Source: a virus
Lineage: Duplodnaviria > Caudoviricetes
Virus record (IMG/VR): IMGVR_UViG_3300030330_003094
Location: 1 to 28,569 of that record
Length of the DNA stretch: 28,569 nucleotides
Strand: one strand, 5' to 3'
The notes beneath the pieces are model-generated. The model was not told the DNA's origin and ran no database searches. It saw only the letters and a program-made list of their open reading frames with translations. Below, piece by piece: positions 23,404-24,720 of this stretch. Made by a program: the position numbers and the translations under genes. Numbering within the stretch: the first letter of the stretch is position 1; the number at the start of each line of letters is the position of its first letter.

Positions 23404-23432
23404 ATTATAGCACAAAAAAAGGAGGGTGTTAA
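23404..23432 (-). promoter_or_regulatory. Sigma70-type promoter TTAACA-N17-TATAAT
   Basis: -35 at 23427-23432, -10 at 23404-23409. Confidence 0.7.
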
Positions 23433-23438
23433 CCCTCC
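23414..23438 (-). terminator. Rho-independent terminator ending the DUF4278-like operon
   Basis: GGAGGG-TTAACA-CCCTCC followed by T7 on the minus strand. Confidence 0.85.
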
Positions 23439-23587
23439 AGTTTCCAACTTTTTTTGCCTCTGGATTTTAAATCAACCCATTTAGCGTAGTGTATGCCACG
23501 ATACGTTAAAAACCCAAAAGTTTTGTCTGGATCGTGTTTTACGGGGTCATATGCTGGAAGATCATTATGTAAGTTGACCTTCAGCAT
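23429..23587 (-). CDS. DUF4278-like small protein (LTYRG motif)
   Basis: MLKVNLHNDLPAYDP...FLTYRGIHYAKW; GAGGTGAG Shine-Dalgarno upstream. Confidence 0.7.
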   Translation of the reverse strand: MLKVNLHNDLPAYDPVKHDPDKTFGFLTYRGIHYAKWVDLKSRGKKSWKLEG

Positions 23588-23591
23588 ATTC

Positions 23592-23687
23592 TCACCTCTT
23601 TTGTAAAAGTGTGAGTTCCCCGTAAAGTAAACCAAGAAATGCAATACTAAAAATAGAACCTAATGATGCTACTTGTAATGCTTGCAT
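23592..23687 (-). CDS. 31-aa single-TM peptide
   Basis: MQALQVASLGSIFSIAFLGLLYGELTLLQKR; GAGG Shine-Dalgarno; fills the gap between two YRG genes. Confidence 0.65.
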   Translation of the reverse strand: MQALQVASLGSIFSIAFLGLLYGELTLLQKR

Positions 23688-23694
23688 GATTGCC

Positions 23695-23859
23695 TCACTT
23701 GTTGTAAGTGTGACCACGATAGCAGAAAGTACCATGTACTTCGTCAACACCTTGCTTGCACTCAAATTTAACGCCACGATAGGTGGTCATTGCGATTTGA
23801 GCGTCGTGAAGTGCTGCTGCCTTCTCGATTTGCTTCTTGATGAGAGTTAGTGTGTTCAT
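23695..23859 (-). CDS. DUF4278-like small protein with two YRG motifs
   Basis: Hand-translated MNTLTLIKKQIEKAAALHDAQIAMTTYRGVKFECKQGVDEVHGTFCYRGHTYNK; AGGT Shine-Dalgarno. Confidence 0.8.
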   Translation of the reverse strand: MNTLTLIKKQIEKAAALHDAQIAMTTYRGVKFECKQGVDEVHGTFCYRGHTYNK

Positions 23860-23901
23860 TTGTCGTTACCTGAAATACTAGGGATTTTTAGCCCCGTTCC
23901 T

Positions 23902-24066
23902 TCAGTCGTTTGCGTCCCAGTAACACTCAGGTTCGGTTGCTTCCCTTACGGTCTCAACCAACTCAACCTTTACCTTGGGAGGTAAGGATTCATGTTTAGC
24001 AATTCTAAGCATAATAGCATCAGAATCCTGACAACTGAGTGTAGAGTATAGAAGTAATTCTAACAT
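23902..24066 (-). CDS. 54-aa small protein inside aptamer 2 (C-x35-C)
   Basis: Hand-translated MLELLLYSTLSCQDSDAIMLRIAKHESLPPKVKVELVETVREATEPECYWDAND; the last codons are aptamer nucleotides. Confidence 0.75.
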   Translation of the reverse strand: MLELLLYSTLSCQDSDAIMLRIAKHESLPPKVKVELVETVREATEPECYWDAND

Positions 24067-24101
24067 GGGATGAACGCTCCGTTCCGCGACTTACTTGCGT
24101 C

Positions 24102-24302
24102 CTATGTATACACGCCGTTACATTCACCTGGTACTTTTGACTTAAGATAAGCGATCAGACTCAACTTTGACCGAAGGTCAAGGTTTGGATCTAACCGAAT
24201 TTCCGTAGATCGTTGTAACCACCTTTCACAAGACATATGCCAGTCGTAAGGATTGGCGTCATTATGATGGGCAAGGGTGAATGCCAGCAGCAGTGCTAAC
24301 AT
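24102..24302 (-). CDS. 66-aa small, possibly secreted protein inside aptamer 1 (C-x35-C)
   Basis: MLALLLAFTLAHH...MSCERW...VPGECNGVYT; hydrophobic N-terminus; spans exactly the P2 loop. Confidence 0.75.
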   Translation of the reverse strand: MLALLLAFTLAHHNDANPYDWHMSCERWLQRSTEIRLDPNLDLRSKLSLIAYLKSKVPGECNGVYT

Positions 24303-24321
24303 TGGATGAACGTACTAGAGT

Positions 24322-24350
24322 ATTATAACTCTTATACTTTATTTAGTCAA
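24322..24350 (-). promoter_or_regulatory. Sigma70 promoter TTGACT-N17-TATAAT with an embedded late promoter TAAATA (24340-24345)
   Basis: -35 at 24345-24350, -10 at 24322-24327; predicted start site near 24315, a few nt before aptamer 1. Confidence 0.85.
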
Positions 24351-24355
24351 GTGCT

Positions 24356-24390
24356 TGTATCAACCACTACAAAAAGTTCGGTTTGATACA
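24356..24390. promoter_or_regulatory. NtcA-type boxes: perfect TGTA-N8-TACA (24356-24371) and imperfect GTT-N8-TACA (24376-24390)
   Basis: TGTATCAACCACTACA matches the GTA-N8-TAC consensus and lies just upstream of the -35 element. Confidence 0.65.
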
Positions 24391-24456: not shown

Positions 24457-24720
24457 TCACTTCCTCTTTTTGGTTTCGGGTGCCTTTACACCATAGAGTT
24501 TAGGGTTGATCCTACCCTCCGTTTGATTCATAGTCACGAAGTCTTTCTTGTACTTGTCGTAGTAATGATCAAAGATTTCAGACTGCTTTGCTGCAGCAGC
24601 GATGTCGTAGTGAGAGACATCATCTACTTTATACTCAACTAAAAATGAGTTGTTTGGAAGACTACGGTCTTCTGCTGGTTCTTGACCGCAGTCTTCAAAA
24701 AGAATTTTCATAATTTTCAA
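24457..24720 (-). CDS. Conserved hypothetical cyanophage protein
   Basis: LPNNSFLVEY...YDI...IFDHYYDKY...GRINPKLYG; coupled to the upstream gene. Confidence 0.8.
   Translation of the reverse strand: MKIMKILFEDCGQEPAEDRSLPNNSFLVEYKVDDVSHYDIAAAAKQSEIFDHYYDKYKKDFVTMNQTEGRINPKLYGVKAPETKKRK

Follow-up and report, generated by a model that had tools for sequence, protein, structure and literature searches.

We found that a stretch of T4-like cyanophage DNA carries a predicted glnA-class glutamine riboswitch whose two aptamers are, in our firm judgement, nested in a single fold around real genes. The window, by which we mean the whole 28,569-nucleotide stretch analyzed, is a 28.6-kb virus record; on its minus strand, two small genes (ORF1 and ORF2) occupy the loops of the two P2 stems (P2a and P2b), and a DUF4278-like gene follows directly downstream. 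The feature is real and belongs to a known kind of riboswitch, with an architecture for which the literature searched holds no description. As to how it works, we lean towards a nested double glutamine switch in which glutamine would free the ribosome site of the DUF4278-like gene, likely shut ORF2 and possibly also ORF1.

Layout of the element and its relatives

The best cultured-phage matches to the window are Synechococcus and Prochlorococcus myoviruses, and Syn9 gp196, gp197 and gp198 are homologues of ORF1, ORF2 and the DUF4278-like ORF, respectively. The neighboring ORFs are what we take to be T4-like genes, namely a single-strand binding protein, phoH and thyX. The features of the element are as follows.

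24357-24370, minus strand: putative NtcA-type box, a perfect GTA-N8-TAC (consensus from PMC6316151)
24322-24350, minus strand: sigma70-type promoter TTGACT-17-TATAAT, 11/12 consensus matches
24312-24304 and 24076-24068, minus strand: sequence CGTTCATCC
24304-24312, minus strand: outer aptamer 5' strand, comprising the P1 5' strand with ligand-contact C1 and the P2a 5' strand
24302-24102, minus strand: ORF1, 66 aa, phrog_6471, two cysteines, near-leaderless, in the P2a loop
24102-24095 and 23917-23910, minus strand: sequence GGACGCAA
24087-24102, minus strand: P2a 3' strand, G18/C19 equivalents (24098, 24097), E-loop and P3 5' strand
24095-24092 and 24091-24087, minus strand: E-loop AGUA and P3 5' strand, placed by the Rfam alignment of short-loop relatives
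24085-24079 and 23900-23894, minus strand: GGAACGG
24068-24085, minus strand: inner aptamer region with permuted P1, linker, GGAG and P2b 5' strand
24084-24080 with 24076-24072, minus strand: circularly permuted inner P1 with a 2-nt linker, pairing probability 0.8
24080-24077, minus strand: GGAG ribosome site of ORF2
24066-23902, minus strand: ORF2, 54 aa, phrog_504, in the P2b loop
23894-23919, minus strand: P2b 3' strand, inner G18/C19 (23913, 23912) and P3 3' strand (23908-23904)
23903-23901 and 23896-23894, minus strand: E-loop GAA and outer C39, G40 and G41 equivalents (contacts according to the consulted parts of PMC6698751)
23869-23875, minus strand: predicted expression platform strand over the ribosome site of the DUF4278-like gene
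23695-23859, minus strand: DUF4278-like (IF17-like) ORF, 54 aa, phrog_545 (E 3e-32)
23693-23592 and 23587-23429 (phrog_6192), minus strand: two small ORFs
23438-23421, minus strand: intrinsic terminator, the probable end of a presumably co-transcribed unit

A preliminary description of this DNA had pointed to two strand-ORF-strand modules ending in GGAACGG on the minus strand, and every part of them is in place. A looser form of the module pattern occurs twice in the window, compared with 0.003 times per window in 300 Markov resamples. The TAG of ORF1 overlaps the P2 3' strand, as had been noted, and ORF2 does run through the junction, where it ends in WDAND with its TGA inside, its last codons and stop being written in aptamer sequence. 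The start codons had been placed 0-1 nt after the 5' strand; the ATG follows CGTTCATCC by 1 nt in both modules and never by 0. The proposed extension of P2 over the start codons is likewise found, with seven pairs over the AUG and one A.A mismatch for ORF1, and five pairs reaching only the A of the AUG for ORF2.

Relatives were gathered via three proteins and five DNA pattern scans, so that counts from patterns refer to the matches listed; all counts are over related sequences with kinship left in. The ligand-contact bases were fixed by the search patterns, and their invariance in the relatives is therefore no evidence. In many relatives a short hairpin replaces one or both loop genes. Two junction scans made without selection for fill state allowed 116 of 120 viral and 110 of 118 metagenome loci to be parsed. 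Among the matches listed, both slots were filled in 24 of the viral loci, slot 2 only in 56, slot 1 only in 10 and neither in 26, with corresponding metagenome counts of 22, 60, 8 and 20. At least 80% of the 41-nt junction occurs in 424 cultured-phage records, many of which are repeated isolates. A loose pattern scan of bacterial genomes gave 4 loci that fit the junction out of the 121 listed. Two small contigs in bacterial genome bins (L484 and L518), one of them from a Prochlorococcus single cell, carry a gene-filled nested element and are probably phage DNA.

The preliminary description had assigned the modules to the glnA class and expected that the inserted genes would defeat standard covariance model searches. 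The Rfam scan indeed gave no glutamine riboswitch match on the window at the gathering and E-value thresholds, and at the gathering threshold none of 20 gene-filled or half-filled loci matched. Relatives with naturally short loops were used for the loop-removal check, and five of six both-empty loci exceed the RF01739 cut-off of 35 with 38.4-43.6 bits (the sixth, L251, is below), which bears out the class assignment. One of these relatives, L234, has the non-loop bases of the window save one linker base; it thus serves as a natural loop-deletion control, and the failure of the window on RF01739 is explained by loop length. Gene-filled and empty forms share identical cores, and the contact bases C1, G18, C39, G40 and C19:G41 (numbered as in the accessible text of PMC6698751) are present at both sites of the window. 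The 24304-24312 strand matches the 5' core both of RF01739 matches and of glutamine-II RNA. Glutamine-II identity (RF01704) was considered and rejected: its cut-off is reached by one of ten short-loop loci (34 bits), its pseudoknot-closing P2 fails, and covariation backs a shared P3 with an E-loop. With the junction present in so many cultured phages, loop insertions may hide riboswitches from covariance model scans more widely.

Topology of the two aptamers

Sequence comparison indicates that the outer aptamer (24312 to 23894) forms a complete three-way junction about 420 nt in length with both genes inside it, and that the inner aptamer is circularly permuted at the far end of P3, where it would close around ORF2 with a P1 linker of 2-5 nt. 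We read the double fold as nested because the E-loop is split, P3 covaries between the modules and the linchpins cross. The E-loop halves AGUA and GAA sit in separate modules, beside P3 in the outer aptamer only; the inner aptamer has no E-loop. In the Rfam alignment, both-empty loci appear as a single aptamer that begins at the first 5' strand and ends at the last 3' strand, the part in between being an insertion in P3. In the P1/P2/P3 junction of the outer aptamer, P2 and P3 covary and P1 is invariant, the predicted partner of the outer 5' strand (23899-23895) being derived from the crossed linchpins. For the P3 strands of the two modules, which occur in 52 distinct combinations, the paired fraction is 0.82; shuffles give 0.74, and none of 2000 was as high. 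The changes in these strands include A-U/G-C, C-G/U-A and three-way exchanges; in the window, 24091-24087 covaries with 23908-23904.

Linchpin variants were sought deliberately in extra scans, which gave 549 unique loci among the matches listed, leaving out 119 of the 121 bacterial-genome loci (117 chance matches of the loose pattern and two serial tandems). Crossed linchpins, in which position 19 of each module pairs with position 41 of the other, fit 548 of these 549 loci, compared with 418 for serial pairing. At the loci that discriminate between the two models, 130 of 130 fit nesting only, with both linchpins broken in the serial model. Linchpins and P3 covary in the gene-filled forms too. 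The outer linchpin changes seven times on the ORF2 tree, with only two independent pairs on supported branches, below significance. In a nearest-neighbor model without E-loop, tertiary or ligand terms, the energy cost relative to the minimum is 6.2 kcal/mol for the nested state and 8.7 kcal/mol for the serial state. A compensatory C-G linchpin had been proposed within each module; the C and G are present in both, and they pair across the modules rather than within them. C-G is also the linchpin state (C19:G41) of the glutamine-II crystal structure in the consulted parts of PMC6698751.

These data also correct the topology of the preliminary description, two independent serial aptamers each with its own P1, linchpin and E-loop/P3, which is practically untenable: the P1 strands are identical in both modules and sequence alone permits it, lone short-loop modules score 25.7-37.2 bits on RF01739 and the accessible part of the 2010 alignment lists such units one by one, but both linchpins would be broken at all 130 discriminating loci, the E-loop halves AGUA and GAA are split between the modules, and P3 links the modules by covariation.

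Of 258 well-flanked loci, 12 were not parsed. Read by eye, one of them is an ordinary serial tandem, one has another arrangement, and six carry A at inner position 19, the linchpin position, a hint that the inner site is weakened in some lineages. Ordinary serial glnA tandems also exist at L540, L569 and L791. Three symmetric short-loop variants (L864, L883 and L888) have AGUA and GAA halves in both modules and a shared P3; their inner linchpin is mismatched, and they may resemble an ancestral form. In Synechococcus phage Sf-CH5 (L711, 1081-1672), the linker between the modules has grown to 590 nt and contains a homing endonuclease gene (phrog_314, E 8e-9), with both loop genes and all strands intact.

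Covariation in both slots, paired changes on a gene tree and folding all agree with the earlier proposal that P2 closes over the ORFs. Among the matches listed, the third P2 pair is C-G in 139, U-A in 37 and U-G in 1 of 177 unique slot-1 inserts, and C-G in 316, U-A in 64, U-G in 8 and C-A in 1 of 389 slot-2 inserts, of which 7 have the first pair switched. In the 128 double-filled loci listed, the third pair holds in 128 and 127 when strands are taken within slots and in 100 and 107 when taken across them. The commonest slot-1 ends have leader bases that mirror the paired stop codon (TAG, TGA or TAA). On the ORF1 tree, both sides of the third pair change 16 times, always together; all four of the supported independent P2 pairs agree, which is too few for significance. 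In a 40-sequence alignment, 94.9% of P2 cells are paired (0 of 500 shuffles as high), and the number of covarying pairs is no higher than in shuffles. Unconstrained folding of the window RNA closes P2a (p 0.76) and P2b (p 0.91) without ligand, and according to the consulted text of PMC6698751 the stems of glutamine-II form in the absence of glutamine; any hiding of the AUGs may therefore be independent of ligand. At least two AUG bases are paired in the end duplex in 152 of 176 slot-1 and 290 of 388 slot-2 inserts among the matches listed.

Genes and exchangeable slots in the loops

The loop ORFs are real, conserved genes, as judged by purifying selection and few broken copies. In 565 of 566 inserts among the matches listed the start codon lies 3-10 nt from the aptamer 5' strand, and three ORFs stop very early. 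The dN/dS ratio is 0.15 in the ORF1 family (58 disjoint pairs) and 0.23 in the ORF2 family (56 pairs), and the four largest loop-ORF families give 0.23, 0.15, 0.16 and 0.26. At the other end, 369 of the 389 slot-2 ORFs listed stop 14 or 17 nt beyond the end of the insert, within the P3/E-loop strand. Contigs from RNA libraries span both ORFs and the junction; they show neither strand nor level, nor a start, and DNA may be present, so that we do not count them as support for expression.

At least seven subfamilies occupy the slots, and single linkage unites 563 of 565 proteins at E 1e-3, with cross-family profile matches of up to 1e-7 that are weak for one family. Two cysteines are kept in 562 of the 565 loop proteins, which share a short hydrophobic start, and the predicted model of ORF2 is a two-helix hairpin between the cysteines (Cys-helix-helix-Cys, pLDDT 83). 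The proteins matched no Pfam family, PHROGs gave no function, Foldseek gave no match against PDB, and BFVD and the ESM Atlas returned uncharacterized cyanophage proteins only. A possible likeness to CP12 was dropped, as it has no Pfam support. By sequence, the loops appear to behave as exchangeable slots for one superfamily of two-cysteine proteins. On the tree of slot-2 genes, slot 1 switches between filled and empty 55 times. Each of the loops is empty in many loci (both in 26 of 116), so the switch does not need the loop genes. Free-standing genes may have been captured into the loops and then swapped by recombination between identical flanks. Free-standing members of the superfamily occur just upstream of a riboswitch promoter (L667, 293-500) and in an ordinary operon (L899, 701-874).

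We also looked for a fold special to the inserts. All 54 of those sampled fold better than their synonymous shuffles, with z-scores of -2.6 and -1.8 for the loop ORFs of the window, -3.9, -4.4 and -4.9 for neighboring genes and a mean of -1.5 for controls (n 42). Special selection of the loop ORFs to fold shut was rejected, the neighboring genes folding as much or more. The small genes at 23429-23859 and 24457-24711 (minus strand) have far stabler folds than their synonymous shuffles. Within ORF1, covariation yielded one candidate helix; in a full scan, pairs just as good turned up in many scattered places.

Control of the genes and comparison with known systems

Transcription would start 1-4 nt ahead of the aptamer, the promoter ending 10 nt before the first aptamer strand; the resulting leader of ORF1, predicted at about 11-14 nt, consists of the outer P1/P2 strand. 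Among the matches listed, 338 of 509 relatives have a -10 element of at least 5/6 and a -35 element of at least 4/6. The sequence CTAAATA at 24341-24347 (minus strand) overlaps the -35 hexamer and is similar to late promoters of the T4 type; 223 of the 509 upstream regions listed contain TAAATA. An NtcA box lies 30-90 nt before the aptamer in 361 of 517 unique upstream regions, compared with 18 of 517 in the control, again among the matches listed. It stands upstream of the -35 element, a place that differs both from the canonical position for activation and from the one for repression at the gif genes. In the window, a second, imperfect NtcA-like box (GTA-N8-AAC, 24376-24389, minus strand) lies upstream of the perfect one, and a further perfect box (23504-23491) falls within the last small ORF, with the next promoter about 60 nt further on. 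That cyanophage genomes contain NtcA sites was already known from the consulted part of PMC3037559.

A link to DUF4278 genes had been suggested from known glutamine riboswitches, and a DUF4278-like ORF does lie directly downstream, beginning 35 nt past the last aptamer strand, with a match to Pfam PF14105 (E 0.003, 18.3 bits) that is below the cut-off of 25.3. Downstream ORFs of relatives begin MNTL or M(S/A)xVxY. On sequence grounds this gene is likely the main target of the switch. The phrog_6192 ORF (23429-23587) has a TYRG motif like that of the DUF4278-like ORF, which matches phrog_6192 weakly (E 0.014); the phrog_6192 ORF is possibly a paralogue. In several relatives (L148, L150, L168 and others) an optional extra hairpin of about 28 nt lies just past the outer aptamer, so that the DUF4278 start is about 60 nt away instead of about 33.

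The clearest expression platform, as modeled, acts on this DUF4278-like gene, which the preliminary description had not identified. A predicted ligand-free helix pairs 23905-23900, part of P3 and the E-loop, with 23875-23870 (pairing probability 0.97). Among the matches listed, loci with CUAAA have the partner CUUUAG in 73 of 84 cases and UUCAG in none; loci with CUGAA (n=348) have UUCAG in 149 and UUUAG in 83, about a third having something else, so that the OFF helix with the downstream site is kept in only 232 of these 348. Because this covarying helix hides its ribosome site, glutamine likely turns the DUF4278-like gene on, a direction of control that we hold with good confidence.

The preliminary description had further proposed that the riboswitch regulates the genes inside itself. 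For ORF2 this has indirect support: its GGAG is built from inner G40 and G41 plus the linker. Among the matches listed, slot-2 loci of this P3 lineage have the GGAG in 281 of 293 cases when filled and in 5 of 23 when empty, the corresponding figure for filled loci of the AGCCG lineage being only 3 of 87. As its ribosome site is made of inner-aptamer bases, glutamine likely turns ORF2 off, and we incline to the view that at least one loop gene is repressed in this way. In one relative (L412) the slot-2 gene has its own GGAGG ribosome site within the P2 stem. For ORF1 there is little support, given the predicted ligand-free closure of P2 and the many relatives in which one loop or the other is empty; its repression is plausible and is the least certain of the three.

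Under low glutamine, 23905-23900 would pair with the DUF4278 ribosome site, and ribosomes would load on near-leaderless ORF1 and, via GGAG, on ORF2. Under high glutamine, the nested fold would be stabilized, withdrawing 23905-23900 from the DUF4278 site and burying the GGAG and start region of ORF2. Since neither ORF can be translated unless the aptamers unfold, sensing and translation would compete on each mRNA, and the NtcA box likely adds transcriptional nitrogen control. Extended to most T4-like cyanophages, this becomes a hidden, cooperative two-site switch in which one ligand event turns the enclosed genes off and a glutamine-synthetase-inhibitor-like gene on, with loops as exchangeable gene slots, a generalization that we offer tentatively, judging its chances a little below even. 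If it holds, phage riboswitches are common rather than rare, and a nitrogen-sensing switch operates inside infected ocean cyanobacteria.

The strongest competing reading, which we regard as unlikely though well worth weighing, is that the riboswitch controls the DUF4278-like gene only. Small genes parked in the loops would be tolerated there, profiting from a strong early promoter linked to nitrogen, and glutamine would make no difference to their translation. The occurrence of all four fill states (24/56/10/26 of the 116 viral loci listed), the 55 changes of slot-1 state, the seven or more subfamilies with their free-standing homologues (L667, L899) and the closure of P2 without ligand would all fit such loops, but mere parking would not lead one to expect starts within 3-10 nt of an aptamer strand in 565 of 566 inserts listed, the pairing of at least two AUG bases in most inserts of both slots (152/176 and 290/388 of those listed), or an ORF2 ribosome site that uses inner contact bases and tracks the filled slot.

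Control could also run in reverse, with translation of the loop genes gating the sensor in leader-peptide style. Since the stop codon of ORF2 (23904-23902) is part of the anti-SD strand covering the DUF4278 site, translating ORF2 could expose that site without glutamine; ribosomes at the stop would melt the helix and couple DUF4278 output to ribosome traffic, and glutamine would count on untranslated mRNAs only. The stops of 369 of the 389 slot-2 ORFs listed lie in the same P3/E-loop strand. However, the conserved cysteines (562 of 565) and low dN/dS suggest that the proteins have a function of their own, and empty-loop versions retain the same platform, which leaves this reading improbable. 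A fold kept for mRNA end protection, processing or protein binding, its filled forms no longer binding glutamine, is more improbable still: glutamine binding is a prediction here and some relatives have a mismatched inner linchpin, but filled and empty forms have identical cores, linchpins and P3 covary in the filled forms as well, and the NtcA box and DUF4278-like target point to nitrogen control.

Glutamine riboswitches, their tandems, the DUF4278 link and a few phage copies are already in print. In the literature searched, we found no description of nesting or enclosed genes, and no Syn9 transcript map was found there. As far as the consulted text of PMC6212724 goes, the outer aptamer shares P1, P2, E-loop and P3 with glutamine-I (glnA, RF01739; the Synechocystis gifB/IF17 leader), and the gifB system is alike in its DUF4278-type target, in an NtcA box at the promoter and in the predicted release of the ribosome site of its ON-switch model. 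In contrast to glutamine-I, there is a second aptamer on P3, in circularly permuted form, each P2 loop contains a protein gene of about 150-200 nt, the element is phage-encoded and the linchpin is C-G where the Rfam consensus is G-C; the NtcA box is upstream of -35, whereas those of gifA and gifB lie over the core promoter. Glutamine-II (Downstream-peptide, RF01704; 6QN3) has the same core strings, C19:G41 and all contacts listed in the accessible parts of PMC6698751, where two-piece and strand-exchanged forms can also bind glutamine. Here the pseudoknot-closing P2 helix is replaced by an E-loop/P3 junction and, compared with that strand-exchanged form, the exchange is within one RNA.

The 2010 alignment of tandem glnA RNAs (PMC2864571), in the portion consulted, contains short-loop units with the junction sequences of module 1 and module 2, aligned as separate aptamers without P3 where ours are nested; start-sequence terms found no gene-filled row in it. 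Glutamine riboswitches have been annotated in the phages S-CREM1 (PMC9964418) and Melnitz (PMC9004378), the 99-nt S-CREM1 match equaling the both-empty nested form in length, and a 2017 survey (PMC5473149) lists two glutamine aptamers in cyanophages and considers that phages rarely use riboswitches; in the consulted parts of these three papers, phage riboswitches are regarded as a rarity, and there is no mention of nesting or of genes inside an aptamer.

Riboswitch aptamers are generally described as compact domains without coding sequence, lying beside the genes under their control. In the present case, covariation favors an aptamer of about 420 nt, with two whole genes and a circularly permuted second site inside it. 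Syn9 gp196-198 offer a cultured system for two questions: do cyanophages sense the nitrogen status of their host and act on glutamine synthetase, and how does folding driven by the ligand compete with ribosomes on a single mRNA? In leader-peptide attenuators, a ribosome on a small ORF alters the RNA folding that controls a downstream gene. Unlike the ORFs of such attenuators, those described here encode conserved, folded proteins of 50-75 aa inside a metabolite aptamer.
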